Below, one piece after another: positions 1 to 38,200 of a stretch of DNA of 48,845 bases (its first letter is position 1; every line of letters starts with the position of its first letter). The DNA comes from an uncultured Candidatus Peribacteria bacterium. Lineage in GTDB: Bacteria; Patescibacteriota; Gracilibacteria; UBA1369; UM-FILTER-41-14. Where the stretch lies: contig CAYLRB010000001.1 of assembly GCA_964386265.1 (NCBI GenBank), positions 1 to 48,845 of the forward strand, in the 5' to 3' direction. A program made the position numbers and the translations under genes. The notes beneath the pieces are model-generated. The model was not told the origin of the DNA. It saw nothing but the letters and a program-made list of their open reading frames with translations, and did not search any database.

Positions 1-21
1 AGAAGGTATGTAATTGAATCG

Positions 22-45
22 AGCGACTTATGGTCGCTTTATTTA
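22..45 (+). terminator. Small hairpin (agcgac/gtcgct) followed by T-rich tract
   Basis: 6-bp perfect stem at 22-27/33-38 with a 5-nt loop, then ttatttag. Possibly the end of a gene upstream of the window. Confidence 0.3.
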
Positions 46-3101: not shown

Positions 3102-4250
3102 TTGAAAATGTCGACGCAAAACCATTTATTTATTGATGCAAGAGAGGCTTTTTGCAAACAACCAACGGGGAAGGGAGTTTTTAATCGTTCATTGGTAGCT
3201 ACCTTGCTTGAGCTAAAGCTAAAAAGGAAAGTTACCCTTTTGTTGGACAATCAGTCTATTCTGGATATCGCATTGCCGAAAAATTGGCAAATTAAGAAGT
3301 TTGATGGGTTAGGATTGGGATGGCAGTTAAAAGCGTCTAAGTGGCTTAATAAGCAAGCAAAAGGGCATTTGATTTCACCAACTAGCTATCTGCTGCCTTT
3401 GCTTACAAAAATGAAATCAACCGTTGTCGTGCATGACTTAATCAGTTTTCTTTATTCAAAAAATCATCATTGGAAAGCTAAATTAATCGAAAAGTATTGT
3501 TTACCGCGTTTGGCTAAGCGGACTAATGTTGGTTTCGTTTGTGTGTCTCAATCTACAGCAGACGACCTATTAAGGTGTTTGCCTAATTTAAAAGTCGAGC
3601 GGGTTAAAATAGCAAAACCGGGGTTGCCAATCGTTTTTGCTAAAGCATGTTTAAAACAAAGTTTGAAAGCAAAAAGCTTAAATTTGCAAGAGCGCGGAGG
3701 GATAAGTGAAGCGCCTTTTGTTTTGGCTGTTGCAACTTTAATTCCTCGCAAAAATATTAAACGGCTTATTTTGGCGTTTGATAAGCTCTTACAAGAAAAC
3801 AAAAATTTACAAAAACATCGCTTAATAGTAATTGGAGGATCAGGCTGGGGGCAAAGAGAGCTTGAGCGTGTATTAAAAAGTTTAAATTTTAAATCACAAA
3901 TTGATCTAAGAGGGTACGCAACTACAGCAGAATTGGTTGGCTTGTATAAGCAAGCTGAACTGTTTGTGTTCCCGTCTCTTTATGAGGGCTTCGGTTTGCC
4001 TTTATTAGAAGCTATGCTAACACGGTGTCCAATTTTATGTTCGGATATTTCTGTGTTTCACGAAGTTGCGGGAACTGCAGCTAGTTATTTCGATCCATAC
4101 AATGAAGAAGATCTAAAAAATAAGTTGAAATTTTTATTAACAAATCACGAACTTCAACAAATCTTAGTTGGTAACGGTGCTAAACAGCTCAAAAATTTTG
4201 ATTGGCAAAAAACAGCTCAAGTGTTTGTTGATAGTAGTTTAAGCAAATAA
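3102..4250 (+). CDS. Glycosyltransferase family 1 (GT4-type, GT-B fold)
   Basis: C-terminal Glycos_transf_1 signature FVFPSLYEGFGLPLLEAM. The track start is TTG at 3102; the ATG at 3108 is more likely. Confidence 0.85.
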   Translation: MKMSTQNHLFIDAREAFCKQPTGKGVFNRSLVATLLELKLKRKVTLLLDNQSILDIALPKNWQIKKFDGLGLGWQLKASKWLNKQAKGHLISPTSYLLPLLTKMKSTVVVHDLISFLYSKNHHWKAKLIEKYCLPRLAKRTNVGFVCVSQSTADDLLRCLPNLKVERVKIAKPGLPIVFAKACLKQSLKAKSLNLQERGGISEAPFVLAVATLIPRKNIKRLILAFDKLLQENKNLQKHRLIVIGGSGWGQRELERVLKSLNFKSQIDLRGYATTAELVGLYKQAELFVFPSLYEGFGLPLLEAMLTRCPILCSDISVFHEVAGTAASYFDPYNEEDLKNKLKFLLTNHELQQILVGNGAKQLKNFDWQKTAQVFVDSSLSK

Positions 4251-7410: not shown

Positions 7411-7491
7411 GAAAACAAAGTTAATTCATGACAATTTTACGCTGATTCGCAGGTTATGGAAAGGTGCTTTTTGACGTTTGATTTGTCAGAT

Positions 7492-8826
7492 TTATACTCC
7501 GGCTGCTCCAATAAGTTGTGACATCGGTAGCATAATTGCCAACACAACAATACCAACAATTAAGCCGACAACTGCAATAATAAATGGTTGCAGTAGTTTG
7601 GTTAAGTTGTCCGCCAAGTAGCCAACTTTTTCACCATAGTAATAGGCAAGTTTGGCTGTGATACTATCAAGTTGTGCGGTTCTTTCACCTACGCTTACCA
7701 TGCTAATTAGCATCTCGCTAAAGTAGGGACTATTACGTAAACTATCGGCAATTTGGATACCATTCGCAACGTCTTTAGCTAGTAGGTGGACGTTTCGCCG
7801 ATAAACTAAATTTCCCAAACTGTTTGCTGTAATTTGTAAGGCTTGAACAATTTGGACACCACTTGATACTAAATTAGATAAACTATTTGAAAAGTTAGCT
7901 TGAGCAATATCTCTTTGGAAATCTTTGATAACAGGGATTTTGAGGGACAGATAATGATAAATATAACGACCTTTTGGTATTCTATAAGCGATAATGTTAA
8001 GTCCAATAATTATAACAAATCCTAGAACCAGCAAAGTTGTATTCTCAACTACAAATTGACTCGTATTAACCACAAATATTGTAAGAGCTGGTAGTTCCAT
8101 GCCAGACTCTAAAAATAGTCCACTAATTTGAGGTACCACAAATTTTAACAGTGTGAACAATGTAACGATCACAAACAAAATTACAATCGCTGGATAAATC
8201 ATGGCGCTAACTAGTTTACGACGTATTGCAGCTTGTTTTTCAACGTCGCTAGCTAAGCGTTTAAGCGCTTCAGTTAAACGTCCTGTTACTTCGGCGGCGC
8301 TAATTATTCCAATTTCTGATTCGCTAAAAATATTATCAAAATCGCCTAATGCCTGAGAGAATGATTGACCTTTTTCAAGTTGCCAACTAATAGACTGGCA
8401 GATTTTCTGCATGTGCTTGTCAGTTGTCTGATTCTTATAAATTGTTAGGGCTTGCGTAAGGGATATACCCGCTTCTAACATTACGCTTATTAGTTCATAG
8501 AAATTCTCTTTTTCCTTAATATTGATGCCTTTTCTAATTTTAAAGAAGCCATGCAAATTTTTATAGGCCTTAAACTTTTCTAGTTGGCCTTTATTTAAAG
8601 TTTCAGTAGGTTTTGCTGATTGAAGTTTTACTAAATCAACATTGTCGATATCCAAATGCACAACATCATCTTGAGCTGAAGTATTTACATTGTTTGCGAC
8701 CTGATTATCTATCGTGCCGACTTGTAAGCGAGCTCGAGCAACAGCATTTGCATCTGGCTTTTGATCCAGACTAAATGTAGTTTGTTCGTTGATTTCATTT
8801 AGGCCAAAGCCGTTAGCTGATTTCAT
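7492..8826 (-). CDS. pilC: Type IV pilus assembly platform protein PilC/GspF family
   Basis: Two GspF-type repeats (LISVMLEAGISLTQALTI and LSNLVSSGVQIVQALQI) and three hydrophobic TM segments. The start overlaps the pilB stop by 4 nt. An N-terminal extension of ~100 aa is present. Confidence 0.85.
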   Translation of the reverse strand: MKSANGFGLNEINEQTTFSLDQKPDANAVARARLQVGTIDNQVANNVNTSAQDDVVHLDIDNVDLVKLQSAKPTETLNKGQLEKFKAYKNLHGFFKIRKGINIKEKENFYELISVMLEAGISLTQALTIYKNQTTDKHMQKICQSISWQLEKGQSFSQALGDFDNIFSESEIGIISAAEVTGRLTEALKRLASDVEKQAAIRRKLVSAMIYPAIVILFVIVTLFTLLKFVVPQISGLFLESGMELPALTIFVVNTSQFVVENTTLLVLGFVIIIGLNIIAYRIPKGRYIYHYLSLKIPVIKDFQRDIAQANFSNSLSNLVSSGVQIVQALQITANSLGNLVYRRNVHLLAKDVANGIQIADSLRNSPYFSEMLISMVSVGERTAQLDSITAKLAYYYGEKVGYLADNLTKLLQPFIIAVVGLIVGIVVLAIMLPMSQLIGAAGV

Positions 8827-10274
8827 TGTTGAGGAGGTGCGGTATTTATATTAGGCTGTATTGTTGATGTTTGTGGTTGTATTGGTTGTGCAATAGACGG
8901 TGATGATACCGGTGTAGCTGGCATAGCAGTTGGGATAACTGGTTGTGGCTGAGCAACTGGTTGAGGCTGAATGACGTTAGCGGTAAGCGGTTTTTTCTTT
9001 GTTTCGCCAGCTGATCTACGTGCAACTCTGTAAACTTCCGGTAGACTTGTCTCTCCCAATGCAACACTAATAATCCCGGCCTGTTCTAGTGTTACCATTC
9101 CTTGGGAAACGGCTAGTTGTTCTAGTTCAAGTGATGAAACATCGGACATAATCGCTTCTCGCAAAATATTGTTTACGTCGATTACCTCATAAAGCCCTAG
9201 CCGGCCAAAGTAACCCGAGTTATCGCATTTGTCACATCCTTGTGGCATGTAGACTGTAGTTAGTTGAGCAGGTAGATTTGGATAGTTAGCTTTTTCTGAA
9301 TCGGCAACGTTTGCATATGAAAGTAGAGCACTTTCAACCATGTCGGGTTTTTGTTTTGCAAGTTCTGCAATCGGGACAGGGACTCGACAGTGTGGGCAAA
9401 GTTTGCGAACCAAGCGTTGCGCAATAATATTGTTAAGCGTTGACGCCATTAGGTAGGTCGGAACTCCCATGTTCTTAATCCTTGTCAAAGTTTCAATGGC
9501 GCTGTTTGTATGGATAGTTGATAACACAAGGTGGCCAGTTAGTGCTGACTCAATAGCAACATCAACGGTTTCGCGATCCCTGATCTCCCCCACCATCATA
9601 ATGTCCGGATCTTGACGTAATGCTGAGCGTAAACCCGTCGCAAAACTGTAATCAATATCATGATGAACTTGTGATTGATTTAAGCCCGGCATCTGAATTT
9701 CAACAGGATCTTCGATCGTTAGTATGTTTACATCACTTTTATTTAAGATATTTAAACAGGCATACAATGTTGTAGTTTTACCAGAACCAGTCGGTCCAGA
9801 AGTTAGAATGATACCATTTGGATCTTCAAGTCCTGATAGTAGATATTTTAGACTGTTACCACGAATACCTAACTGCTCTAATGTAGGTATTTCTCTGGAT
9901 TTATCTTGGATACGCATAACCACTTTTTCGCCAGTTACAGTTGGAAAAGTTGAAATACGTAGATCCATTTCGCGACCATCTTTTGTTGTTACTTGGCTGC
10001 GACCATCCTGTGGAATCCGTTGTTCATCGATTTTAAGGTTCGACATGATCTTAATGCGTGATACAACAGCTGGATGCATATTTGGAGGGTACTCAACTAT
10101 AATTCGTAACACACCGTCAATACGGTAGCGTACCCGAATCGTTGTTTCTCCCGGTTCAATATGGATATCAGAAGAACGTAAATCTAGGGCATAACTGATC
10201 ATTTGCAGTACCATTTGTGGTACTTGTCCGCCTAGAATCGCTGATTTTAATAAGGTGAGTTTTTCCGCTTCCAT
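8823..10274 (-). CDS. pilB: Type IV pilus assembly ATPase PilB/GspE family, lacking the N1 domain, with a Pro/Gln-rich tail
   Basis: Walker A GPTGSGKTTT, Walker B/Asp box DPDIMMVGEIRD and His box GHLVLSTIHTN. The tetracysteine motif CPHC...CDKC is typical of PilB/GspE rather than PilT. The C-terminal ~60 aa are P/Q-rich (QPQPVAQPQPVIPT...). Confidence 0.9.
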   Translation of the reverse strand: MEAEKLTLLKSAILGGQVPQMVLQMISYALDLRSSDIHIEPGETTIRVRYRIDGVLRIIVEYPPNMHPAVVSRIKIMSNLKIDEQRIPQDGRSQVTTKDGREMDLRISTFPTVTGEKVVMRIQDKSREIPTLEQLGIRGNSLKYLLSGLEDPNGIILTSGPTGSGKTTTLYACLNILNKSDVNILTIEDPVEIQMPGLNQSQVHHDIDYSFATGLRSALRQDPDIMMVGEIRDRETVDVAIESALTGHLVLSTIHTNSAIETLTRIKNMGVPTYLMASTLNNIIAQRLVRKLCPHCRVPVPIAELAKQKPDMVESALLSYANVADSEKANYPNLPAQLTTVYMPQGCDKCDNSGYFGRLGLYEVIDVNNILREAIMSDVSSLELEQLAVSQGMVTLEQAGIISVALGETSLPEVYRVARRSAGETKKKPLTANVIQPQPVAQPQPVIPTAMPATPVSSPSIAQPIQPQTSTIQPNINTAPPQQ

Positions 10275-10288
10275 GTGATAGTTTAAGA

Positions 10289-10909
10289 TTATTCTTTAGG
10301 TGACCTAAAATATGTATTCAAAACAACTGTATAGTTTAGCACATTTTGGCTGTCTTGGCTAATTCCTTGTAGATTTAGTGAAATAGATTCAACATTCATA
10401 AATTGTAGTTCACTACCAGGTAGGCCTGAAGTTTCAATCAAATTCAAAAACTGGCTAAAGTTTTCAAAGCTACTTTCTAAAGTTAAAGTAATTGGTAGGA
10501 CAAAAACTCCCAGTTCATCGATTGCTTCGGTTGAGCCAAAAGATAAGCTGGTGTTTCGGATTGGGCTATCTGTAGTACTTAAGTCGGCAAAGATTTGGTC
10601 AAATTGACGAGTTAACTTTGTGATATTTTCTTCAGCTGGTAAAAAATCACTGATTTCATACAAAGGCTTAGGTTCACCCAGTTTGGCCAGTTCGTCATCT
10701 AGTTCTTTACTGGCATTAGCATAGCCTCTGTAACTTTGAACAATCTCGCTAACAGTAGTTTGTGTAGTTTGAAAATTGCCAACTAGCCACCAACTAAGGC
10801 CAATACTTAAAATTATTGTGAAAAGCGAAGCAATAACGTACAACTGTGTACGTAGTTTTTGCTGTTTTAGTTTGTTGGTAATTTCATCAACTGCCACAAT
10901 GGAAGTCAT
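10289..10909 (-). CDS. Bitopic membrane protein, PilO/GspM-like topology (putative pilus alignment component)
   Basis: Single N-terminal TM (LYVIASLFTIILSIGLSWWLV), a coiled segment, then a ferredoxin-like-looking C-terminus (ITLTLESSFENFSQFLNLIE). It lies in the operon immediately upstream of pilB. Assignment rests on context and topology only. Confidence 0.4.
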   Translation of the reverse strand: MTSIVAVDEITNKLKQQKLRTQLYVIASLFTIILSIGLSWWLVGNFQTTQTTVSEIVQSYRGYANASKELDDELAKLGEPKPLYEISDFLPAEENITKLTRQFDQIFADLSTTDSPIRNTSLSFGSTEAIDELGVFVLPITLTLESSFENFSQFLNLIETSGLPGSELQFMNVESISLNLQGISQDSQNVLNYTVVLNTYFRSPKE

Positions 10910-10910
10910 A

Positions 10911-12152
10911 TTAATTGTTTGTTACGCTAATACTAGATGGGAGTTCCGGCTTGAGATTTGTTAGTTCAAAATCTAGTTTTACAGTTGCTTCATAGTGTTC
11001 TTGAGGGTTGTCCCCTTCTCTTAGTTGGTTTTTGTTAAACGATCTTGTTTTTACATTTTGGAAGGGCTTTATACCTGCGGGGTTTTTGTAGTCAATTAGT
11101 GTATCAATTAGATCGGCAATTTTAGTGAAAGTTCGGCTATCTTCGGTTTTTATTTGTCCTGTAACAGTAAGCTGTTTGGTACGGCTGTTAAAGTTGTATG
11201 CAGAGTAGGTGATAAATTGGTCACTGTTTCCAAAATTTGGGTCAATTTGTTTGGTTACATCTTCAATACCCTGGATAACTTCAGACCATAGTAGTCTCTC
11301 GCTTTGTAGTTGAATAATTGTACTTTCTGGTAGTCTGGATTGGGCTAAAAACTCTGATATCCAAGCGGAAAATGCCGCATTATCTAGTTTTTCAATTTGA
11401 ACTAAACGATTTGCACTCGTAAAAGTGTCAAATAGGAAGCCATTACGTATCATTAGCTCCGCATTACTCTTTTTTAGGTTATCTGGTAACTGCTCTATTA
11501 AGTTTGCTCTGTCGGTTTTTGCATTATCAGATCCGGCAAAGGACAATTTCGACATTAAGCTTTGTAGTTGTGTAAACAGCTGCTGAATTTCAGCGCGGAC
11601 ATTTTTTAATTCGCGCTCTGTGTTGGCTTGTTCAATTGCATTTAATTCGCCATTTTGAGTTGCTTGTAAAAGGCTTAAGAACTCTAGTCCTTTCCAGTTT
11701 AGGCTTGCAAAAATGTATTCAGTTAATTGATAAATACGTATGTTATATGCAGCCTCTAGCTTTGTTTTATTATCAATTGCTGTTTTGATTGTTAGGCTAC
11801 CTTTAAAGCCTGTGTCAGACTCGCGAATATATGTGGCATAGTAAAAGTAGCTTAGCATGAGCACGCTAAGTATTAGCGCGGTTAAAAAGAAAAATTTCGC
11901 CAGCTTAGTGATGCGTTTAGTCTCCTTTAGACGGCTTTCTAGCTGTACAAGTTCGGCTTGTTGCAAAATATCAGTTTCAAGGATCGCTTGGTCTTTGTTT
12001 TGCATTGCGTTATTAAGCTCGTATGCTTGCGATTGTTGTTCATCACGCGCAGCTTGTGCATTACCCATGGCAGCAATAATAATGCCTGATTCCTCGCTTG
12101 AGGATTGTCCTTGGTTTTCGTCTTGATTCAAAGGCGGAAGGCTAAGTGACAT
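10911..12152 (-). CDS. Bitopic membrane protein of the pilus operon (PilN/PilO-like topology, no PilM actin-like domain visible)
   Basis: Q-rich cytoplasmic N-terminus of ~85 aa, one TM (FFFLTALILSVLMLSYFYYA), and a ~300-aa external domain with coiled-coil stretches. Its stop is 1 nt from the next gene's start. Confidence 0.4.
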   Translation of the reverse strand: MSLSLPPLNQDENQGQSSSEESGIIIAAMGNAQAARDEQQSQAYELNNAMQNKDQAILETDILQQAELVQLESRLKETKRITKLAKFFFLTALILSVLMLSYFYYATYIRESDTGFKGSLTIKTAIDNKTKLEAAYNIRIYQLTEYIFASLNWKGLEFLSLLQATQNGELNAIEQANTERELKNVRAEIQQLFTQLQSLMSKLSFAGSDNAKTDRANLIEQLPDNLKKSNAELMIRNGFLFDTFTSANRLVQIEKLDNAAFSAWISEFLAQSRLPESTIIQLQSERLLWSEVIQGIEDVTKQIDPNFGNSDQFITYSAYNFNSRTKQLTVTGQIKTEDSRTFTKIADLIDTLIDYKNPAGIKPFQNVKTRSFNKNQLREGDNPQEHYEATVKLDFELTNLKPELPSSISVTNN

Positions 12153-12833: not shown

Positions 12834-12853
12834 TAGGCCAGGCATCTTTGATT

Positions 12854-12976
12854 AAGAGTGTTCAAAAGGTAGTAGATAGTAGGCAAAAAGCAGAAAGTAA
12901 AGCGAGGCGTACTATAGCGTACGGTGAGCTGCTTTTTGCTTTTTAACAACCTAGATGCTACTTTTTCAACACTCTT
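12854..12976 (+). terminator. Long imperfect hairpin with perfect inner 11-bp stem plus T-run
   Basis: The inner stem gcaaaaagcag (12883-12893) / ctgctttttgc (12929-12939) is followed by ttttt. A nested cgtac/gtacg hairpin sits in the loop. The outer arms (12854-12883 and 12950-12976) pair over ~22 bp with few mismatches. Confidence 0.45.
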
Positions 12977-12984
12977 TGATTAGT

Positions 12985-13025
12985 CGACTAGTCGATTCCG
13001 GTTACGCGGACGACTAGTCGTTTTT
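12985..13025 (+). terminator. Rho-independent terminator
   Basis: Perfect 10-bp stem cgactagtcg (12985-12994) / cgactagtcg (13011-13020) with a 16-nt loop, followed by ttttt (13021-13025). Confidence 0.6.
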
Positions 13026-13068
13026 CGCATAGGTTAGGGCTAAAATGCTGTTCGCGGGACTTCGGAGT

Positions 13069-13077
13069 TGCTATAAT
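13069..13077 (+). promoter_or_regulatory. Extended -10 promoter element (TGcTATAAT) for the giant-gene operon
   Basis: tgctataat at 13069-13077, 30 nt upstream of the ATG at 13107 and downstream of both terminator hairpins. No good -35 element. Confidence 0.45.
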
Positions 13078-13106
13078 TAGCAGAGCAGTTTTATTCGTTT
13101 TAAGAT

Positions 13107-16100
13107 ATGAATTTGTCGCCAATTATATTACGTAGATTGAAGAGATTTGGCGGTCTGTTTTTGCCTTTTTTAAGCCTGGTTTTGCTTGGGTATTTGCTCT
13201 TCGGTGGTCAGTTGGTTGGGCGCGCGCAATTAGATGACGATGTTGTTAAACAAACTGTAGTTATTCTAGTACAAGAATCATTACTTGAGTCAGACGAGAG
13301 ATTCGGTGGTTTGGCAAGCGAATATTCCGCTTTGAGAAATGTAAATTTGGCTAATCGAATAGATAGGTATGCCAAAGACATTCAAGCTACTTTGCCGCAG
13401 ACAGAAACAGTAATATTGCCGATACCTCAAACGGCAAGTGCATTAAATATTCATCAATTACTACAGAGACTAACATTGTTTAGTTCTGATCAGTTAGTTG
13501 CACCGCCGGTTGGTGTCGTTTTGGTTGGAGATTTGCCGTTGCCAACGGTTGAAAACAATGGGGTTAATCAGGTTAGTGTATATCCGTATACGGATTTTCT
13601 TGATACAAGATATGTTTGGGATGCGCTATCAGAAAGTTTTGTATTACGGCAAGAAACAAGCAAGCCCGAACTTTGGCATGGTCTAATTAAGTTTGAGCAA
13701 GAGGTGGATTATGCAATTTACTTCGACAAAAACCACTTAACAAAAATTGGACACGAAGATTTTACCGCTAAAAGACGCATATTTTTCAGCGATTTGCCGG
13801 ATGAGCAGGTTAGTTTAAATGAAGATTTGTTACCTGCTTATGCCAATTTTATTAGCGTTAGCAAACAAAGATCGTACCAGCACTACACAAGCGATTTGTT
13901 GCGCATACTTGCCAATAGGTTTAACAGTGGCTTTAACGATGTAGATTTGACTCGGTTAAGTGAAGAAATTGCTGATGTTGCCAGCGGTTCAGGTGATTTG
14001 GCAGACACATATGTAAAGCAGCAGATAGAGAGTTTTAGTCGACCTTTTATCACTTTATTCTCAGGTTATTACAGTCGTATTTTGCCAATAATCGAGCAAA
14101 CAGGGAGGTATCGCAATGAGCGTAATGAAATAACAACAGTTCCGCAGCAGGTGTCTTATGTAGATGAGCGGCAAGAACAGTTATTTAAAGCTGTTAATTC
14201 AAGAGTGGAAAAGTTGGTTGATGATATTGTTGAAGAGGTAGCACAACCCGCGCGGCTATTTGCTGCTATAGAGCTAACTGGTACTGCAAAATTGAAAAAT
14301 GGGCAAACTATCAACTTGAGTCGGCAACTTTTCTTTAATCATAGAAGTCGTACCGCTGTAACCGTTTCGGAGTTGGTGTCACATGCTAAAGCTCCTGGTG
14401 GCGTTGCAGGTACAGTTACAAAATTTAATAGAGGCTTAGCTTCAATCATTGTGGCGGTACAAGAGCTCGATCCAGTATTTGGTACAAACGGAACTCTTTT
14501 GGCTACATCTGTAAGTTTAACAGAAAATAGTTTAAGCCAAGCATTAGCACAGAGTAGTTTGTATATTAACTCACAGCCAGTAACTAAGATTTCTACAGCA
14601 GAGCAATGTCGTTTTCAACGTGGACAAAAAGCAGATCAGCAGGTGGTGACAAGCCGAAATTTTTCAATCAATCAATCCAGTGAGCCAGCTCAATGTTATT
14701 TGCCCTGGGCAAGTGGGGAAGAGAATCGTTGGCTTAAAGATAAGTTTAAATGTGATCAATTCAATGGGATTGAGCTATTAGATGAGCACCGTTTAACAAA
14801 AGTTGTAAATGGCGATGATGCTTTAACAACGCACGAATCTTGCTATGCTTTCCGTAGTCCAACAACCTACTTTAGGACAGAGTTGGGGGAAGTGCCATTT
14901 GATCAAGTTGATAACCCGGCAAATATTGTTTTGAGTGATTCGCTTAACCTAGATTTGGCTACAGCACTGAAGGCAATCAATAGTGATCTGGATCTAAATA
15001 GTCAATCTGCTTGGAGTGCCGCCTTAGCAAATTTACCAAATGATAAAATTACTTTAACTGGTGAAGATCTGGGGCTCACAGATGTTGCAGAGTTAACACT
15101 TAAAACAAATATTATCGGAGAAAGTAAAACTGTAAGTAGTGTGATTGACCATAAAGATCCAATTCCAGAGGTTTTAAATCGTCAATTCACAGAAGGAATA
15201 TCTCGCAATCTTCCTATTGATGGCAAAAGGTACATAAGCTTTGTTAATAGAAGAGGGCAAGCCGAATATCTTTTTTATCCAGACCTTTTTGCCGCTGGGA
15301 GTTTTAGTAATTATCTTGAAGAATTAAAAAAGGTTGAAACAAGACTTTCGCAATTAAGCCGGCAAAACTATCGAGGTTATTTAACAAAGGTTGTCAATGA
15401 AGAGCTAACAGATTGGGATGAAGATTTTGAAAATGTAACAACAGTCAATGAAAATGAGTTGAGAAATTTCCTAAACTGGCAAGTAAGCGATTTGCAAACA
15501 AAGTATCAGTTGGCTTTTCAGCTTGGTTTGCAAGGTTTGAACAGTTGGGGACAGTTAAATGAGGCTGGTACATATGAAGTTGCGGTTTTAAATTTGCCAT
15601 TTAATGACAGTGAAACACCGGACACGCTTGCGTTTGATCTTCCTAAGATCGTTGCCGATAGTAATCTGGGATCTTTGGAAAATTTAACCACGGCAAACAA
15701 CGATTTAACCGAAAGCGATGAAGAAGACGAAGCTGACCTTGGTGAGGCGCGAACTTTTACTGCCTCTGAACTTGAGGCAACTGCAAATTGCAATCAATAC
15801 TACACAGCTCGCGGAATGGTGAGATTTTTGGACTATGCGTCTTATTTGGATTGTTGGTTTACCAATGAGGTACAAACAAGTATTAATCAGCTAGTTGACC
15901 TCCCTAGCCTTAAATTGCCAGAGGTAGCTAATCCTTTGCCTCCTCAAAACCAAGTAGTTAGTAGCTTAGAAATTAACGCTTTGGATCAGTTTGTTAATAG
16001 TAGTAATAAGCAAAAAGTTACTGTTAAAGTGTTGAATTCGGCAGGGCAAGTTGTTAGTGGGCAAGTAATTAACATTAACCTTAAAGTTAGCGGTGCGGCT

Positions 16101-19100
16101 AAAATAGCCGGGTCGTCATTGCAAACGACTACAAGCGGTCAATCAGAGTTTGAAATCGAGCTAACGAAAAATAAAGGTGTAGTAAAACTAGAGGCAAGCT
16201 TATTAGATTTAACAGTCCGCAAAAATATACAAGTTGTTGAACCTTATAATGTAAGTTTAACTGGAGCTAATTTTAGAGCAGGTAGTGAAAATGCCCAGCT
16301 GGAAATTAAAGTTACAAATCCATCTGTGGATCAAACTTTACTTAAAGAGATAAAAATAGATAGTGAAGGTATCCCAAGTTTGAACGGTACATTTGCGCTA
16401 GAAAATGGCATGCTGTTGATTAATCCAGCTTTGCCAACCAAAAGTGGACGTTATCCGCTTAAAATCAATTTGGCTGGCAATACAGTTCAGAGGTCTGTTT
16501 TAGTAAAACCGGCGGAATTGGCTAAAGTGGAAACTGCCTCTAAAACTGTTTCTAAATTTGACAGAAAAGTTGTTGTCAATTTTTTTGACAGGTTTGGTAA
16601 CAAAGTTGATGACCGCTTAATTAGAGGTTCTTTGGCAAATAATAACCAAAGTATAACTTTCTCACAGACAAACTTTAGAACAGAAAATGGTAGCATTGAA
16701 TTACCATTTAGTTCCAGTCAAAGTGGAGTGTATCAGCTTACATTAGACATAGAAGGGTTCGCCGAGCCGTATTTATTGAACTTGATTGTGACTGAACAGC
16801 TAAGCTTTGAACAGTTAAAAGGATTAAGTCCAGCCGCACAGCATTTACAGTTACATTCAAATCTAAATAATGAGGCAGCTGGTGAGTGGGTGTCGCAGTG
16901 GCTTTTAAATGGTAAAGCACAAACAATCGCTGTAACCCCGCAAACAGAAACTTATCAGCAGTTATATAATATTGCAGGAAGCAACACAGTTGGTGAAGCC
17001 TACAGTGCAAATCAAGATGATAGTTTGATTGTTTGGGGAGATCCAACATTTAAATTGCCAGCAAATACAACTAGTAATGTAAGAGGTTTTTCCGCCGATC
17101 TCGGTGAAGTTATTGCGGATTTGCCCGCTCCAATAGCGCATATTGCAACTAATGATGATACATTAGCTCTCGCTACAACCGAAGGCGAAATATATCTTCT
17201 TCAAGATGATAGCTTGGAACTGCTTACTTCAATTCCATTAGGAGTTAGAAAACTAGTTTGGTGGAAGCCTGAGCGTAGGGCTAGTAACGCAGTTTTATTG
17301 GTTGTGACAGAAGATGTTTGTTCCGAGCTTGAAGGATGCTTATTTGCAATTTACTTTGATGATAATGGACGATTGCGGCAAGAATCTGTGCCAATAAAAA
17401 CCAATGGTAAAATTACGAATCTGTTAGTAGATGATTTGTCTGACGATCGCGAAGATGATCTTCTAGTAGTGAATGAGGCACAAAATTTATTACTATTTCT
17501 CAATTCAGAAGGCGTTAATGACACGTTTCAAAATTGGGTAAATTACGAACCGGTTAGAATTGCCTCTTTAGCTGCAGAAGCTAATCCTGAGCGTAATTTG
17601 AGTAAATATTTTTTATGGCATCAGCCTGGGTATACTCCTTCGGAATCCGAACAAATAGTTGAAAATACAAGCAACTATAACAAAGTCATAAATGGAAAAA
17701 TTTATCGTACATTAAATCAGGTTAATCAATTAAAAACCTCTACTGTAAGTGTTCGTGATGTAAATGGTCAAAGAATTGAGGCCGGCGAGCTTTTGGAATA
17801 TAATATTTTACTCACAAACGTTGGGCAGCAACCAGTAAATGGGTCTCTTGCTCTACCAGTAGCTGGAGAATACCGAGTCCAGTTAGACAGCGTATCTTGC
17901 CCTAACTGTAGTATCCAAAATGAACAAAGTGACCAATATCCTTACCGCATTGATGGTATTTCGGTACAATCTGGTCAAACCTTGAACATTACATTTAGAG
18001 CTAAATTAGAAAGATTACCAGATCAGACTAGTCATCTTTCAATAGTAACCGATGCTGATGGTTATCCAGCTGATGGGAAGGCAGATATTAGAGTGGTCAA
18101 TCGAGGAAGCGGCATCATAACATATCTTTATTCAACCCAAAATGATCGGGGACAAATAGTTTACCGAAGACAGGAAGTGGCTCAATCTACAGCAACAGCA
18201 ACCGGGCAAGCAGCCGATTTGTTGCAGACAAACCGTACAGCGCAACAGGCACTCCAAAATGGAAATATAGATTCGTTAAGGGCTCAGGCTGAAGCAGATT
18301 ACCAAAGCACGCTTAGGGCAGATAAAGATGGTAACGATATTTTAGATTCTTTAGAAAGTACAACGGGCAAAGCGCATAAAATTGCTGACAAAGTAAACAG
18401 TTTAATTGAAGATATTTTCTGTAGCGGTGGCTGTATAGCAACACCGGTAAATCATGCGTTTTTGGTGGATGGGTGGGGAATACCCGGAAGTGGTCCAGCT
18501 GTTCCTGTTATAGCAATTAGTAAGTTGCCACCATTTTTCCAACCAGGTATAGCTGCTGGATCTGTCTTTAGGCAATACCTTTCCCCAACATTAACAGGTG
18601 AGTTGGGATTGGCTACCTGTTATGGCCTATATCCTTTTGGTAGTTGTCACGCATTCAGAGTGGGATTGTTAGAACATTTTGGAGATATTTGTGCTGACAT
18701 AAATAATTCAATTATATCCGCCTTTAATGTCGCTCAGGACGTTGTCTACAATGCTATTAGTGGAGAAGTTGGTGACGGCCAGTTTGGTATCGTGGTTGGT
18801 GCTGAGGGAAGTGTTGGTAATACGCAAACTCCTACAGGAATTAGTACAAGTGTGAACGTTGATGTACCCGGTTTCCCAGAAATTTTAACAAATTGGCTCG
18901 AAGCTCAGCGTAGAGAAATAACCAAGCTAACAGATTTACCAGATTTAACGGTAATATACCCAGATTTTTCCGGCTACTTTGATAGCCTAAGGCAAGAAGC
19001 AGATGATTTGCCATCACAAGCAGAAAGCCAAGATAACAATGAGATTCCGGAAAATGAAACAGTTGGTGAACAAGTAGAAAGGTATTCAAAAAACTATCAA

Positions 19101-26390: not shown

Positions 26391-26401
26391 TAAATTTATT
26401 T

Positions 26402-27565
26402 ATGATTAATCTAAACTTAAAAATCCGGAGCATAATAGTTGGATTAGTCGTATTAATTTTTGTAACGACGCAGTTTGCAATTAGCGCATTTGCTCAAGCA
26501 GAAGAGGAATCAGTGTTTAGTCAGAAAATAACTTCAGTTGAGAAATTTTTTGGTAGTGCCATTGATCCTGTTAACTTTTTTGCACCTTTTGATGATTTGT
26601 TTTTTACACAGAACAGATGTCAGAAAATTGATATTTTCGCTCTCACACAGGAGCGTGACAATGTTGGGCTACTAATTAGAAAAGTGCTCTTGGATGACAG
26701 CGTAAGCTTAGAAGATTTTAAAAAATTGGAGAACAAGTACGATATATTAAGTGCAGAGATTTTCTATCTAAGGAACATTGATTTACTAATTGAGGATCAA
26801 CTTGCGATTCTTAATTCAGAAACACTAAAAGCTTTTGACGACAGAAGGTTAATCGCCGACCAGTTGGCAGATTTTGAAAAAAAATATAGAAAAAATCTCA
26901 CAAAATACAGCGAATGCCATACAACTTTTTCCGAACTAAAGACGGCATGGGGGCGTATAGTTGCAGATACCAAAGGAGCTGGGAGTAATTTTATTAATGC
27001 GTCAAAAAACTTAAGAAACACATTCGTTGAGACACCTGGTATATTACTAGATAATACTCTTGGTACACTGGAAGGATTTTATGAGGCAGTTGTAGGTGTC
27101 CCTTCGCTATTTACTAGTAAAGAAGAGGCGTCAGTAGGCGCAAACAATGTTATTCTTAGCCGTGTTTTGGAAGGGGGAGCATCTGACATATTTGCTAAAA
27201 CTCAGCAGAAAAATAGGTCCAAGGCTATTGAAGACGGTACAGGTGTGTCAGTTTACTATGACAACCGTGCTTCGCAGCTTTTAAATCAAAATCCAAATGC
27301 TAGTCTACTCGATCTAGTTCAGCAGTCTGTAGAATATGAAGGTGAAGTTGGTGCTATACTTAACCAGCAAGTAACGGAGAATAACTTGCAAATCAAGGCG
27401 GCCAGCCTAGATGGATCACTCTTAAACGCCTGGGGCGCGTCAGCAAACACAAGCATTCAATTTGAGCGATACAACCAGCTACTCAATCCTAAAGGGTCTC
27501 AAAACTTAAGTATCGGCCGACAACTTGACGATTTAGCAAAGAGGCAGTGTCGAGAAAAAGTATAG
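26402..27565 (+). CDS. Secreted helix-rich protein, accessory gene 4 (unknown family)
   Basis: Clear signal peptide (IIVGLVVLIFVTTQFAISAFAQA). Starts 11 nt after the upstream stop. It has three Cys (QNRCQK, YSECHT, and C-terminal ...AKRQCREKV). Confidence 0.75.
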   Translation: MINLNLKIRSIIVGLVVLIFVTTQFAISAFAQAEEESVFSQKITSVEKFFGSAIDPVNFFAPFDDLFFTQNRCQKIDIFALTQERDNVGLLIRKVLLDDSVSLEDFKKLENKYDILSAEIFYLRNIDLLIEDQLAILNSETLKAFDDRRLIADQLADFEKKYRKNLTKYSECHTTFSELKTAWGRIVADTKGAGSNFINASKNLRNTFVETPGILLDNTLGTLEGFYEAVVGVPSLFTSKEEASVGANNVILSRVLEGGASDIFAKTQQKNRSKAIEDGTGVSVYYDNRASQLLNQNPNASLLDLVQQSVEYEGEVGAILNQQVTENNLQIKAASLDGSLLNAWGASANTSIQFERYNQLLNPKGSQNLSIGRQLDDLAKRQCREKV

Positions 27566-27611: not shown

Positions 27612-28259
27612 GTGTTAAAATGGAGAGATTTTAATAATTATATGGCTGATTACTTAGAAAGCCCAAAATTAATTCCTGGTGAAACGATGACAGAGGAAGC
27701 TCTGCTTGAAGCAACAAAAAAAAAATTAGGTGATTTAAAAAAGAATATTATTGTTGGCTTAAGTTCAATACCTTTGAAAACGGAACTTAAGCTTTTACCA
27801 GAAGATGTTGAAAAATTATTTAAAAATATAAAAAAAGGAGACGTTATTTTGGTAGGGAATTTAGATGAGTCCAGTGCGCTATTTATCAATGATGGCTCCA
27901 ATTTAACGCACGCCATGATTTATGTGGGCGACGGCAAATTGGTGCATGCAACAAAGAATGGTATAAATGAAGAAAGTTTAGCTGACATTATATCTCATTA
28001 CGAAACTTATGCATTACTTAGACCTGAAATAGGGCAAGAAAAGGCAATTCAATTTGCATTGAGTTCTATTGGCAATAGTTATGACTTTAGTTTTGATAAT
28101 AAATCTAGTGATTCAATGTATTGCACTGAATTGGTAGCAAGAAGTTATGGAGTTGAGTTAGGTGAAAATATCTTAAAACCTTCTGAATTCTTAAAATCAT
28201 TTCCAGAAGTTGCTAGGTCAAAAAACTTAGAAACAACCAACTTGGCGAATATGAAATAA
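27612..28259 (+). CDS. Permuted papain-fold amidase, YaeF/YiiX (peptidase C92, NlpC/P60 superfamily)-like
   Basis: GDVILVGN...SNLTHAMIYVGDGKLVHATKNG (His region) comes before SDSMYCTELVARSY (Cys region), the permuted order typical of YiiX-like proteins. No signal peptide. The track start is GTG at 27612; the ATG at 27642 (MADYLE) is more plausible. Confidence 0.8.
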   Translation: MLKWRDFNNYMADYLESPKLIPGETMTEEALLEATKKKLGDLKKNIIVGLSSIPLKTELKLLPEDVEKLFKNIKKGDVILVGNLDESSALFINDGSNLTHAMIYVGDGKLVHATKNGINEESLADIISHYETYALLRPEIGQEKAIQFALSSIGNSYDFSFDNKSSDSMYCTELVARSYGVELGENILKPSEFLKSFPEVARSKNLETTNLANMK

Positions 28260-28262
28260 AAG

Positions 28263-28355
28263 TTTACATATAGCAACACATATGTAAAGAAAACGGAAAA
28301 ATCTTTACATATTACGCCTAATATGTTAATCTTTTAATTAATTCTTAACATATTA
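28263..28355 (+). promoter_or_regulatory. Cluster of TTACATAT-type inverted repeats upstream of fic (putative operator)
   Basis: Perfect inverted repeat tttacatat (28263-28271) / atatgtaaa (28280-28288). A second, imperfect pair is ttacatatt (28305-28313) / aatatgtta (28320-28328). A further half-site, taacatatta, lies at 28346-28355, just before the GTG start. Confidence 0.4.
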
Positions 28356-28361
28356 TTTTCC

Positions 28362-29426
28362 GTGACAAACTACCAAGTTCCGCGATTACCAAATCATAAA
28401 ATCATTGAAAGTTCTAAAGTTTTAAAAAAAGCTATAATTGCTAATAAGTTAATTGCAGAACTCAAAGGACTTGCACAAACAATTCCCAATCCTGAAATCT
28501 TAGTAAACACTTTGTCTCTGCAAGAGGCAAAAGATAGCTCTGAAATAGAAAACATTGTGACGACACATGATGAGTTATTTAGGAGTAATGAGTATTATAA
28601 AAATTCCTCTTCCGCTAATGAGGTACATCGCTATCTAGAGGCTTTATTCTACGGTGCTCATTGGGTGAAATTGCAGAATCCAATTAGCTCCAATTTGATA
28701 ACAAAGCTTGCGCAAATTGTAACAGAAAGACAGGCGGGGTTTCGCAATTTACCCGGTACTACTTTGAAAAACATAAATGGAGAAATAGTTTATACGCCAC
28801 CACAGAGTATTCATGAAATCATTGATTTAATGGGTAATCTGGAAAAATTTATTAATGATTCATCCATCAGCGACCTTGATCCCTTAGTTAAAATGGCTGT
28901 TATCCATCATCAATTTGAGTCAATACATCCGTTTTTTGATGGAAATGGACGAACTGGAAGAATTCTTAATATAATCTATTTAATTTCTGAAGGTGTTATT
29001 GATGCGCCAATTTTATACTTAAGCCGCTTTATTACAAAAAATAAACCTGAGTATTACCGTTTACTGCAAAGTGTACGTGAAGAGGACAAATGGGAAGACT
29101 GGATACTCTACATGCTAACTGCATTAGAAATAACAGCAGCACAAACAATCAAAACAGTTGCAGATATTAAGCTTATTATGCAAGTTTTTAAAAAAACTTT
29201 AAAAGCAAAAGCTCCCAATCTGTATTCTCATGAGTTGATGAATATAGTTTTTTCGCATCCTTATACAAAGATCGAGTTTCTTGTGGAAGGATTGAAAATC
29301 AATAGGGTTACTGCAAGTAAACATCTCTATAAAATGGCTAAGATCGGACTTCTTGATGTGCATAAATCTGGACGCACAGTTTATTTTGTGAACAGCAAAC
29401 TTTTGAATCTGTTTACATCATTGTAG
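28362..29426 (+). CDS. fic: Fic-family protein (AMPylase type, class II auto-inhibited) with C-terminal wHTH
   Basis: Canonical Fic motif HPFFDGNGRTGR. The N-terminal Fic_N region carries the inhibitory (S/T)xxxE(G/N) motif as SSEIEN. The C-terminal segment is winged-helix-like (VTASKHLYKMAKIGLLDVHKSGRTVYF). GTG start. Confidence 0.9.
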   Translation: MTNYQVPRLPNHKIIESSKVLKKAIIANKLIAELKGLAQTIPNPEILVNTLSLQEAKDSSEIENIVTTHDELFRSNEYYKNSSSANEVHRYLEALFYGAHWVKLQNPISSNLITKLAQIVTERQAGFRNLPGTTLKNINGEIVYTPPQSIHEIIDLMGNLEKFINDSSISDLDPLVKMAVIHHQFESIHPFFDGNGRTGRILNIIYLISEGVIDAPILYLSRFITKNKPEYYRLLQSVREEDKWEDWILYMLTALEITAAQTIKTVADIKLIMQVFKKTLKAKAPNLYSHELMNIVFSHPYTKIEFLVEGLKINRVTASKHLYKMAKIGLLDVHKSGRTVYFVNSKLLNLFTSL

Positions 29427-35228: not shown

Positions 35229-38200
35229 CTACAGTTCTTTCGTTTCTGCAACAACTTTGGCTGCTTCACCCCTAGTAATCGGCTTGTTAACGCCAAACTC
35301 TCCTGTCGGTTTGCCAGATTCATCCGTGTAGCCTTGCATAATGCCTTTTAAAACCGCAAAAGCGATGTATTTTTCATACCATTGGCCCGCTTCGGCATCA
35401 CTGAAATCCATTTTTCCACCAGTAATTTCACTCTCCTTAAATTGTGACAATAAGATGATTTTTGTTGCTTCAGCTCGGTTTACAATTTCGTTGGGCTTAA
35501 AAGTGTTATCGCTATAACCACTAATCCAACCTTCAGCTTTGGCGTAAGCGATGTAGTTTGCATACCAATCTTTTAGTTCAACATCGTCAAAAGGTTTAAC
35601 GGTTGCTACAGGCACAGCATCGGTCTCGCAACCTATTAAGGTTTTCACTAGCTCTGCTCTTGTAATTGAATTGTCTGGGCCAAAAATGTTCATTAAATCA
35701 CCCTTTTCATCGCGGTAACCTTCAACTTTACAGTTATAAGCTAGCTTTAGTATAAATTCTTTTGCCCAATGGTTTTCAATGTCAGTGAAATTATATTTTG
35801 AACTGGTTTTTTCTTTATCTTCTTCGTCATCAGCAGTTGTAGGATTTTCACTAGCAGTTTTAGTATCGCTATTTGAGCTTGATCGCTTCGTAATACGTGC
35901 GCCACCACCGTTTTTAAATGGTTCAGATTCTACGCGAGGGTGCTCGTCTTCACCATTACCATCCCAAAGAACATCTCCAAGTACAGCTTCGCCAAATGGT
36001 AGATCATCACCACTATCGGCAAATTCATTATCATCATTGTCGCGAATTTTAAACTCATCAGAAGCTGGAGTGCCGTCAGCAAAACGATAAGTGTTTCCGG
36101 AGTCATCATCGTTAAAGGTATTGTCCTCACCATTGTTGAATATCCAGCTATCAGCTGTAAAAATATTACTTAAAATTGTTAGTTCATCACTACCGTCAAT
36201 GTACAAAGCAAAACCCTCTAGGCTGTCAGCCATTACAACAGTGTTTCCGTTGATACCATTGGTGCCATTCTCGGGCTCTGCATATTCTTCCCTAACCCAA
36301 GGGTCGCCACCACTTGTTTCTACAGCCCACTCTGCTCCATCTTCAACATCATCACTAAATGTTTCTTCCTCGTCAATTACCAAGCTAAAGTCGTCTAAAC
36401 GAGCACTTCCGTCTATTTCCAAATTAGTATCATCTGTTACAAAACGGAACCTTGCTTGTAGTTCTTCGCCAATATATGCAGTAAGATCAATAGTTTCCTC
36501 TAGCCATTCTCCATTTGTGCTACCAGCTTCTATCTCATCGGTGGTGTTATATAGAGTTGTCCATTCGTCTGTTTCCGGATCTTGGACTTGAAACGCTAAC
36601 GAATCACAGCAATTTTCTAATTCGTAGTGAGTAAAAAAGCTAAAGCTTGCGCTTTCTTCCGCGTCAGTTAGGTCGAGTGCGCGTTTTAGATCAGTAACCG
36701 TATCGTTAGCTGTGTATTGCGCAGACCAAGCAAAATCTCCAGAATTTGCACCAGTGTAATTAAAGTCATTGTCTAAATAGTTTTGCTGAATAAACATACT
36801 ATGAGCATCAATAGCATTTTCATCTGCAGTAACTTCATTGTCGTCAATATCAAAGGCGCCAGATTTAATTACAGATATTCCGTAGTTCGCACCCTCTTCT
36901 GTAAGGCCGAAATTTGTCACTGTGTTGCCTTCAATGCTAACATCAAAAGTTGATTCTACTTCAATACCTCTTGCGCCCAAGTCAGTTAGTTCGTTGTTGG
37001 AGATGGTTGCCTCTTCGCTAAATTCGTCGATATCAATACCGCTTAATGCGATGTCGCTAACGGTGTTGCCTGATACTTCAACTGTTACGGCACCATCAAA
37101 TTCAATTCCATGCTCAGTCGTGTCGCTAATTGTATTGTCGGTAATGTTAATGTTTGTACTGTGATCTTCTGTGTCAGTGCCGTCCTCATCCGGGCTTGTG
37201 ATCGTGTTCTCGTGAACCGTAACTTGGTCTGAAGAAGCAATGTAAACGCCGTCTTCTCCTGTGTTTGAAATTACGTTATTTTCGATCGTTACATCCGAAC
37301 TACTTCTAATGTCAAAACCGTCATCTTCGATATCAAACTCATTTTCCGGATTGCCAATGATATTATCATTAGCTGTTATATCTGTAGAATTATCAAAATT
37401 GATTGCATCATCACCGTCTACATTGTAAATCGTATTGTTGCTAACAATAACTGTTGTTGTATCTTGGATTTCAAGGCCATCACCTCCTATCGTATCATCT
37501 TCAAGGCCGCCGATTTCGTTATTTGATACAGTGATATCTGAGTTGCTAGTTTCGTTGCTATCAACACGAATAGCATCATTGTTGGTACTTAAAATTACAT
37601 TGTCGTCAATTAATAGGCCATCAATATCAATTGCAATGGCACAATCGTTTGAACCTGCTGATGTATTTCCTGAAATTTCAACATCTGTAGCTTCAATTAT
37701 CTCCATGTCAGCTTCGCCAGACCTTAGAAAGTCATTATCGGTAATTGTTAGAATGTCAATTCCATTAACATAGACGCTATCAAGATTTGTATCGGTAAAT
37801 GTATTGCCTGTTACCGTTATGTCTGAAGAATCTAGTATGACAACTGATCTGTCAGTTAATGCTGTGAAAGTTGAGTTCGAAATGGTGCTGTCACTAAAAT
37901 TTTCTGCTTGTATACCAAGTGCTGTTGTTGCAAATGTTACGTTGTCGATTGTTGACTCGCTTACGTCGGAAATAATTATCCCTGCACTGAAATTATTAAA
38001 CCCCAAGTTTTCTATTCTAATGCCTGTATATGGATCTTCGGGGTCGCCATCTATTGAAATCCCATGTGCCTCAGGGTCTCCAGCTAGTGTTAGCGCAAAG
38101 CCAGCACCGTTAAGTTCTACGTCACTTGCTGCAATAGTTATACAAGCCGTATCAGCCTCTAGATCTTCCCCTATATCAGTGTCTAAAATATACTCTCCAG

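Follow-up and report, generated by a model that had tools for sequence, protein, structure and literature searches.

The question raised by this locus is whether one very long gene and the four shorter genes behind it encode parts of a single apparatus on the cell surface. The genes lie in a stretch of 48,845 nt from an uncultured Candidatus (Ca.) Peribacteria bacterium (GenBank assembly GCA_964386265.1, contig CAYLRB010000001.1), which is called the window here. We refer to the five genes together as the cassette, to the first of them as the giant gene (G), and to the others as partners A to D. A previous reading of the DNA alone, made without database searches (the original prediction), described a wall-anchored, calcium-dependent surface structure, possibly used for attachment to a host or prey, which may cooperate with the type IV pilus encoded next to it. 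Our own combined reading is that the cassette encodes a Sec-exported, multi-subunit surface complex, tethered by surface layer (S-layer) homology (SLH) units, that would serve in contact between cells. It is drawn from sequence comparison, and we put its probability at about one half.

A conserved five-gene cassette

The original prediction listed five consecutive open reading frames (ORFs) on the plus strand, and all five were found (Table 1). The junctions calculated from their coordinates are identical to those first reported, namely +8, -28, -10 and +11 nt for G/A, A/B, B/C and C/D; the gene for partner B overlaps that for A by 28 nt and that for C by 10 nt.

Related loci were collected in two ways. 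A metagenome scan with the alignment of partner C gave 80 loci, and a genome scan with the N-terminus of the giant protein gave two metagenome-assembled genomes labelled Ca. Peribacteria, both of which have giant ORFs of more than 3,550 aa that are open only when UGA is read as sense. ORFs were called in all loci and compared with the window proteins, and after that with family profiles. Every sufficiently long contig carries, on one strand, a giant gene and genes for A (~200 aa), B (~225 aa), C (~590 aa) and D (~375 aa), and giant orthologues, as ORFs of >2400-3600 aa, are present in all related loci. The complete order G-A-B-C-D was verified with profiles in 44 loci. Seven more were added on rechecking: in these, gene A had seemed to be absent through an artefact of ORF calling, and it was recovered at 141-186 bits. 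No permuted order was seen, and the other loci fit truncation by contig ends except for L059, L029 and L067; partner D was not found in the last two. Most junctions in the relatives fall within -50 to +25 nt, and many loci repeat the -10 overlap of B and C. The original prediction named a lack of synteny in related genomes as a result that would weaken it; this did not come about, since about 50 independent metagenomic loci share the order G-A-B-C-D. Judged from this order, the five genes are one conserved unit.

The cassette occurs both in loci with the standard code (the window and 78 of 83 loci) and in recoded ones; in L002, L003, L029, L061 and L077, UGA has to be read as sense (code 25 or 4) for its genes to be open. 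It therefore predates or spans the recoding event, and may be used as a marker across the UGA-recoding boundary within the clade. Annotated members of the cassette families are all named "hypothetical protein", and belong to Ca. Peregrinibacteria or the Patescibacteria group.

How far the families extend depends on the search method. A full HMMER scan with partner C gave 192 cluster representatives at E <= 1e-3, which have similar length and a common cysteine-rich core; 36 of these reach E <= 1e-10. A word-indexed search with partner C, or with its 49-sequence family alignment, returned only the query itself. A negative result in an indexed search should not be taken to mean orphan status for families that evolve as fast as these.

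The rate of change is high. The neighbouring uvrA is present in 23 of the loci, and there UvrA has a median pairwise identity of 74%, as against 38% for the giant protein and about 30% for the partners. Fast divergence with gene order and architecture retained is expected of exposed surface components. In most relatives the cassette is followed by a helix-turn-helix (HTH) gene, uvrA, prsW and recF, and so is chromosomal and not mobile. The window carries different genes here: 27612-29426 (+) encodes a C92/NlpC-P60-type amidase without signal peptide and a Fic/SoFic-like protein, and pnp also lies behind the cassette. Since the relatives have HTH, UvrA, PrsW and RecF at this place, a local insertion or rearrangement in the window genome is suggested.

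Modules of the giant protein and its wall anchor

Each of the five window proteins has a single N-terminal hydrophobic segment, in line with the signal peptide or signal anchor that had been predicted for each. Sites of the A-x-A/Q type, read directly from the sequences, follow these segments (GRA↓Q, IFA↓Q, ATA↓A, VLA↓Q and AFA↓Q for G and A to D). The giant protein has two borderline hydrophobic windows further in, and partners A to D have no later transmembrane (TM)-like segment. The same holds in the four partner families (A2, A3, A1 and A4 for A, B, C and D), in which 90-100% of members have the N-terminal segment and no other TM-like one. All five N-termini would fit Sec signal peptides, and whether each is a signal peptide or a signal anchor is a matter of interpretation. 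The only trace of an LPxTG sorting signal is an internal LPVAG at residue 1583 of the giant protein; there is none in the partners, and no C-terminal hydrophobic tail.

The best evidence for attachment to the wall comes from the C-terminal region of the giant protein. On the window copy, Pfam SLH (PF00395) scores 13.5 bits, below its cut-off of 20.8, but 41 of 44 orthologous C-termini match it, the best at 1.5e-16. The profile of this region (A5) aligns to a canonical SLH protein encoded elsewhere in the window with a probability of 98.5% (hhalign, E = 2.9e-15), and also to solved SLH domains of SpaA and Sap (6CWC at E = 8.6e-7, and 6BT4 and 3PYW). TRAE-type motifs are found in the window protein as SRAE at residue 3201, SVAE at 3277 and TRRE at 3336, of which units 2 and 3 are degenerate; the consensus in the orthologues is RAEF / TITRAEA / TRxEF. 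On the strength of these profiles the giant protein carries a genuine SLH wall anchor. The original prediction was right about the anchor but not about its place at the extreme C-terminus, because about 180 residues follow it, which comprise calcium-binding repeats and a CxxCPC tail. The SLH domains of Paenibacillus SpaA and Bacillus Sap bind pyruvylated wall polymer, and by analogy the giant protein would bind it too.

The second SLH protein of the window (35229-38348, minus strand) is a right-handed beta-helix protein of 1039 aa with three canonical SLH domains (99 bits), which indicates that the organism uses SLH anchoring. A YkuD L,D-transpeptidase gene (38504-39589, plus strand) adjoins it.

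The centre of the giant protein is a domain of ~640 profile positions that defines the family. Eight of its cysteines are invariant (in CxGGC, CDxC and others); it also contains a conserved amphipathic helix, a proline-rich LPDLPPLPLPKLPDLP stretch and (L)PD(I/L)...(Y/W)PD motifs that are repeated, and it is found as one hidden Markov model (HMM) domain, at 540-880 bits, in every orthologous giant. No Pfam match was found among 16 members, the search of the PDB with profile A6 gave only coiled-coil noise, and a word-indexed protein search returned nothing. Together with the N-terminal module (residues 81-280), the core is the only part that can be aligned to the distant UGA-recoded relatives L002 and L003. 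The N-terminal module likewise has no Pfam or PDB match. A single-sequence AlphaFold model of residues 36-420 had a predicted local distance difference test (pLDDT) value of 39 and was unusable. A likeness of residues 80-200 to the N-terminal half of peptidase C25/gingipain was considered, and was dropped when the Pfam search gave no support.

Adhesin-type modules occur on both sides of the core. The Ig-like Big_1 domain of the original prediction lies above its Pfam cut-off, and is the sole module of the window protein to do so; it is the first of about three Ig-like modules (residues ~950-1240), and in the orthologue from L009 both Invasin_D3 (53.9 bits) and Big_1 (38.9 bits) are above threshold. 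The proposed FG-GAP/VCBS-like and thrombospondin type 3 (TSP3) calcium-binding repeats are supported through the orthologues, while the window copies score below threshold. Residues 1289-1480 have no Pfam match in the window copy itself, but correspond in order to a stretch of the orthologues that bears FG-GAP (FG-GAP_3 scores 36.5 bits, above threshold, in L009, and 24.8 bits in L002), and presumably form a beta-propeller. The first TSP3-like set, also without a Pfam match in the window copy, has D-x-D/N-x-DG motifs at residues 2821 and 2845 and falls in a conserved block (2801-2950). For the second set, TSP3_bac scores 21 bits in the window copy, below the cut-off of 25, and 32 of 44 orthologous C-termini match it, the best at 7e-39. 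The tail that ends the protein has four invariant columns in alignment A5 (C436, C439, P440 and C441), and could function in sorting, metal binding or docking. The DUF11-like modules originally proposed did not survive: PF01345 gives E = 0.26 and 12.1 bits in the window protein against a cut-off of 24.6, and none was found in the orthologues from L006, L009 and L002.

Conservation along the giant protein peaks in the core, the FG-GAP repeat, the TSP3/Ig region and the SLH/tail region. This pattern bears on the explanation that the cassette is a core envelope module, that is, a constitutive S-layer-like lattice, spacer or wall scaffold that would keep up the cell envelope independently of any partner organism. 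Peregrinibacteria-type bacteria have no outer membrane. SLH is the classic module for S-layer attachment, the five-gene order is invariant over about 50 loci and a change of genetic code, the cassette sits among the housekeeping genes for UvrA, RecF and PrsW, and conservation is highest in the internal core and the wall-proximal C-terminus rather than at the distal tip, all of which fit such a role. Against it speak the Ig-like/invasin, FG-GAP and TSP3 modules, which adhesins typically have, the very rapid divergence compared with UvrA, and the separate SLH beta-helix protein already encoded in the window. S-layer proteins are moreover usually single, abundant, self-assembling subunits and not 3,500-aa mosaics with four accessories. 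We regard the envelope explanation as the main rival of the contact complex, though as rather doubtful.

Partner proteins and a putative contact complex

The four partners fall outside recognised families, as had been proposed. There is no Pfam or NCBIfam match in the window copies, no recurring Pfam family in 120 orthologues, no PHROG match for any of the five cassette proteins, and nothing but coiled-coil noise when profiles A1-A4 are compared with the PDB. Partner A (family A2, 50 sequences) is low in proline and glycine, which suggests that it is helical, and has four cysteines including those of a C-terminal CxxxC loop. Partner B (family A3, 61 sequences) has three cysteines, one of them the penultimate residue. 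A and B are paralogues (hhalign 94.7%, E = 6e-8), while profile comparisons found no homology of C or D to A, B, the giant protein or each other. Partner C has helical N- and C-terminal regions around a cysteine-rich core (C-x6-C-x19-CxxC-x31-C), and ends with a C-terminal cysteine. Partner D (family A4, 54 sequences) has the motifs RNxCQxxDI...C and YY..AELYYVR and a C-terminal KQC. The only PADLOC match in the cassette, that of residues 236-351 of D to NsnC, is weak (22.9 bits, E = 1.3e-5), unconfirmed and probably compositional noise.

A structure was predicted for partner C. The AlphaFold model, made from a multiple sequence alignment of 49 sequences, is mainly helical, with pLDDT 65.5 and a predicted TM-score (pTM) of 0.36; the terminal helices are confident and the cysteine-rich middle is poorly resolved. 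A Foldseek search of the PDB with this model gave no match at E < 1.

In all four partner families, 94-100% of members carry a conserved cysteine among their last 12 residues. Together with the odd number of cysteines that is typical of B (three), this hints at intermolecular disulfides.

These features help to decide whether the five products work together at all. They could be co-regulated secreted proteins that act independently, the giant being a stand-alone adhesin and the partners having, for example, wall-modifying or signalling roles. In favour of such independence, C and D have no homology to A, B or the giant protein, and L059 keeps A-B-C-D without an adjacent giant; the interaction of giant and partners is itself a prediction. 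On the other hand, strict order and overlapping stop/start junctions are kept at about 30% identity, which is typical of subunits made in a fixed ratio; the terminal cysteine is common to all four partner families; and the Pfam searches, which included the 120 orthologues, found no enzymatic domain in any partner. Independent action is therefore considered unlikely.

The preferred reading, a tethered complex for cell-cell contact, can be set out as a series of steps. Judging from their N-terminal signal sequences, all five products would be exported by Sec. The giant protein would be held non-covalently on the wall by the three SLH units near its C-terminus, and its remaining ~3,100 residues, with Ig-like modules, FG-GAP blades, two TSP3 sets and the 640-aa core, would project outwards. 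The four partners, which appear to be alpha-helical and disulfide-containing, would dock on the giant, with its invariant core as the most plausible site. The assembly would have a fixed stoichiometry, and may be held together by intermolecular disulfides. Docking and assembly are suggested by the invariant gene order, the overlapping and presumably coupled junctions, and the shared cysteine features. Finally, the assembly would mediate contact with another cell or surface, in attachment or recognition. This role seems the most likely one because the cassette diverges far faster than its housekeeping neighbours and because Peregrinibacteria-type organisms are thought to be symbionts or predators. 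Much of the wall-anchored apparatus of the original prediction is thus retained, namely the conserved unit, the SLH anchor, the Ig-like, FG-GAP and TSP3 modules and the undescribed partners, while DUF11, the terminal position of SLH and the link to the pilus are not. Calcium dependence of the giant structure and a role of the cassette in attachment to host or prey are both plausible inferences.

Several points weigh against the tethered contact complex. Co-transcription, physical interaction, surface location and host binding of the cassette products are all predicted. The SLH, TSP3 and FG-GAP scores of the window giant are all below the Pfam cut-offs. The model of partner C is only moderately confident (pTM 0.36). 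In L059 the genes A-B-C-D (7431-11834) stand without an adjacent giant; they are flanked there by genes for a Cu-type P-ATPase, a DsbD-like protein and an acyltransferase. The residual covariation of rates among the five proteins, calculated in the manner of a mirror tree, is positive but modest (partial rho 0.27-0.47), comes from non-independent pairs, and was not used. Lastly, the cassette is strict and apparently single-copy in a housekeeping neighbourhood (UvrA, PrsW, RecF), unlike variable adhesins, and conservation in such a neighbourhood fits a core envelope function equally well.

Comparison with known systems gave only partial likenesses. The giant resembles the SLH proteins of monoderms (SpaA of Paenibacillus alvei, Sap/BslA of Bacillus anthracis) in having a Sec signal and three tandem SLH units. 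It differs in that its SLH units precede TSP3 repeats and a CxxCPC tail, in its length of 3.5 kaa, in its novel 640-aa core, and in being followed by four dedicated partner genes; we know of no SLH protein with a dedicated set of this kind. The cellulosome scaffoldins of Clostridium thermocellum (OlpB/SdbA) are also large SLH-tethered scaffolds with calcium-binding elements, on which separately secreted subunits are held. The cassette partners, however, are small, non-enzymatic and seemingly helical, and no Pfam match to cohesin or dockerin was found in the giant, the partners or the 120 partner orthologues, so that the analogy is functional only. The adhesins of the repeats-in-toxin (RTX)/type I secretion system (T1SS) kind (LapA, SiiE, MpIBP) are likewise huge mosaics of Ig-like modules and calcium-binding repeats with accessory genes alongside. 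Unlike these, the giant has an N-terminal Sec-type signal and an SLH anchor instead of an outer-membrane plug; it has neither GGxGxD nonapeptides nor a Pfam HemolysinCabind match, and the neighbouring genes do not encode a T1SS. With intimin/invasin it has only the Big_1/Invasin_D3 Ig modules in common, which are internal in the giant; no intimin barrel and no lectin domain were found in it. Weak NCBIfam matches to MtsD, which functions in cell cohesion of Myxococcus (22.4 bits, cut-off 50), and to Amuc_1099 of a pilus-like system (15.9 bits, cut-off 800) are confined to the calcium-binding TSP3 repeats.

The nearest precedents come from the same lineage (Peregrinibacteria, Gracilibacteria, Absconditabacteria). 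For large extracellular or giant membrane proteins of Ca. Peribacter riflensis and Vampirococcus lugosii, attachment to the host has been put forward as a role, and the available passages describe, in a general way, proteins of the same size class with integrin/FG-GAP, DUF11 and Ig-type modules (PMC4736985, PMC8080830). The core domain, the four partner families and the five-gene order are not described in those passages. For groundwater Gracilibacteria, the part of the text available mentions large extracellular or VCBS-type proteins and pili, and does not describe the cassette (PMC11452946). A literature search that combined Peregrinibacteria with "S-layer homology" yielded no paper. An SLH-anchored giant protein is of a kind already known; what is new here is the four partner families, the ~640-residue domain and the conserved five-gene module.

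A bolder version of the contact complex is held only tentatively. It would be an organelle, so far unrecognised, that defines the Peregrinibacteria/Gracilibacteria/Absconditabacteria lineage, a disulfide-linked hetero-oligomer in which the SLH-tethered giant forms the stalk and the partners four helical subunits set on the novel Cys/Pro-rich core, used for coupling to, or penetration of, the host or prey on which these ultra-small bacteria depend. If so, bacteria would have a new kind of machine for cell-cell contact, with no relation to pili, secretion systems or known adhesin systems. How bacteria belonging to the candidate phyla radiation (CPR) recognise and hold their hosts is largely unexplained, and the literature, as far as the available parts go, names only type IV pili and unspecified "giant proteins". 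One such giant protein now becomes a defined five-gene module conserved over the lineage. The module has parts that can be tested (the SLH anchor, the invariant cysteines and the terminal cysteine of each partner), and is a target for metaproteomics, for labelling in cryo-electron tomography (cryo-ET) and for structure prediction. As a host-contact device it would represent a new class of bacterial surface machine; should it turn out to be a structural part of the envelope, the outer layer of a major uncultured lineage would be defined by it all the same.

Table 1. Coordinates of the cassette, of modules in its products, and of elements in the spacer before it (positions in the window; residues in the protein concerned).
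Feature	Residues	Position (nt)	Strand	Basis or remark
Two hairpins, pilin gene to cassette		12849-13027	+	RNA fold; inverted repeats I1, I2, I4
Imperfect palindrome, ~135 nt		12849-12985
Second hairpin, 10-bp stem		12985-13020		T-run follows; hairpin also delimited as 12985-13027
Extended -10-like element, TGCTATAAT		13069-13077	+	30 nt before giant ATG
Giant gene (G)	3489 aa	13107-23576	+	ORF table
Giant, Sec-type N-terminus	1-40			putative cleavage GRA↓Q
Giant, N-terminal conserved module	81-280	13347-13946	+	tblastn/blastp, 31% identity, E = 4e-23
Giant, Ig-like Big_1 domain	952-1034	15960-16208	+	Pfam, 36.0 bits (cut-off 34.9)
Giant, conserved region	1289-1480	16971-17546	+	phmmer matches in most orthologues
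Giant, family-defining core domain, ~640 profile positions	~1745-2470	18339-20516	+	alignments A6, A7
Giant, FG-GAP/VCBS-like repeat, DFDGDGDAD	2540-2610	20724-20936	+	FG-GAP_3, 18 bits (below 26.9); conserved block in orthologues
Giant, first TSP3-like Ca-binding loop set, DLDSDGDG / DTNNDG	2818-2860	21558-21686	+
Giant, three SLH-type units, motifs SRAE, SVAE, TRRE	~3146-3350	22542-23156	+	cell-wall anchor
Giant, second TSP3 (bacterial thrombospondin type 3) Ca-binding repeat set	3355-3430	23169-23396	+
Giant, C-terminal tail, conserved ~55 aa	3436-3489	23412-23573	+	invariant C-x2-C-P-C
Partner A	212 aa	23585-24223	+	ORF table
Partner B	224 aa	24196-24870	+	ORF table
Partner C	509 aa	24861-26390	+	ORF table
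Partner D	387 aa	26402-27565	+	ORF table
Partner C-termini bearing terminal Cys		24205-24223, 24862-24870, 26382-26390, 27548-27565

Pilus genes and the upstream spacer

In the window, a pilin gene (a 163-aa ORF with N_methyl) lies directly upstream of the giant gene on the same strand, and pilB and pilC are divergent. Between pilB and the pilin gene are two further ORFs on the minus strand, of 206 aa (10289-10909) and 413 aa (10911-12152), without Pfam or NCBIfam match; from their position they may be unrecognised pilus-assembly components. The original prediction suggested that the cassette cooperates with the type IV pilus. This was not borne out, as no pil gene lies beside the cassette in the relatives where the region can be seen. 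A search for homologues of PilB, PilC and pilin in all 82 relative loci, with 10 kb covered downstream of the cassette, found none. The upstream side of most orthologous giants falls outside the 10-kb flanks and is visible in L002 and L003 only, where RNase J, HD and PD-(D/E)XK genes precede the giant gene. The prepilin N-methylation motif (G↓F/M-T-L-x-E) is present in none of the five cassette proteins.

A functional link with the pilus would nonetheless suit a conduit or penetration device, in which the pilus pulls the cell to its host, and the Cys/Pro-rich core and the helical partners form a tube or lance for uptake of host material. The arrangement of the pilin, pilB and pilC genes in the window would fit such a device, and the core and partners match no known fold. 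There is also a precedent in the tube-like conduit of unknown composition that was imaged by cryo-ET, beside type IV pili, between Ca. Mycosynbacter, a Saccharibacteria parasite, and its host (PMC11880426). The tube illustrates that contact structures are still without gene assignment, and nothing ties it to the cassette. The relatives speak against the conduit, since no pilus gene adjoins the cassette there (as in L003, with its RNase J, HD and PD-(D/E)XK genes), and so does the cassette itself, which encodes no ATPase and no polytopic membrane protein and whose partners lack prepilin motifs. Occurrence of the cassette in Saccharibacteria is unsupported. We consider the conduit the least probable of the explanations weighed here.

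The spacer of 273 nt behind the pilin gene (12834-13106) has a predicted fold of -97.7 kcal/mol, with z = -6.24, and none of 200 shuffled sequences was as stable. The hairpins reported upstream of the block, originally at 12854-13025, are confirmed by this fold (z = -6.2) and by the inverted repeats. Their probable role is to end the pilin transcript and to keep the cassette insulated. The second hairpin is made of repeated CGACTAGTCG palindromes, and the spacer exceeds a simple terminator; the structure as a whole may represent a small palindromic element or have a regulatory function. A generic scan of the cassette block for promoters and terminators gave background levels. The promoter-like element TGcTATAAT is present as described. 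The motif TGNTATAAT is not enriched, with 4 copies in the window against 3.06 expected; because this is the level of chance, what argues for a promoter function of TGCTATAAT is its position and not its frequency.

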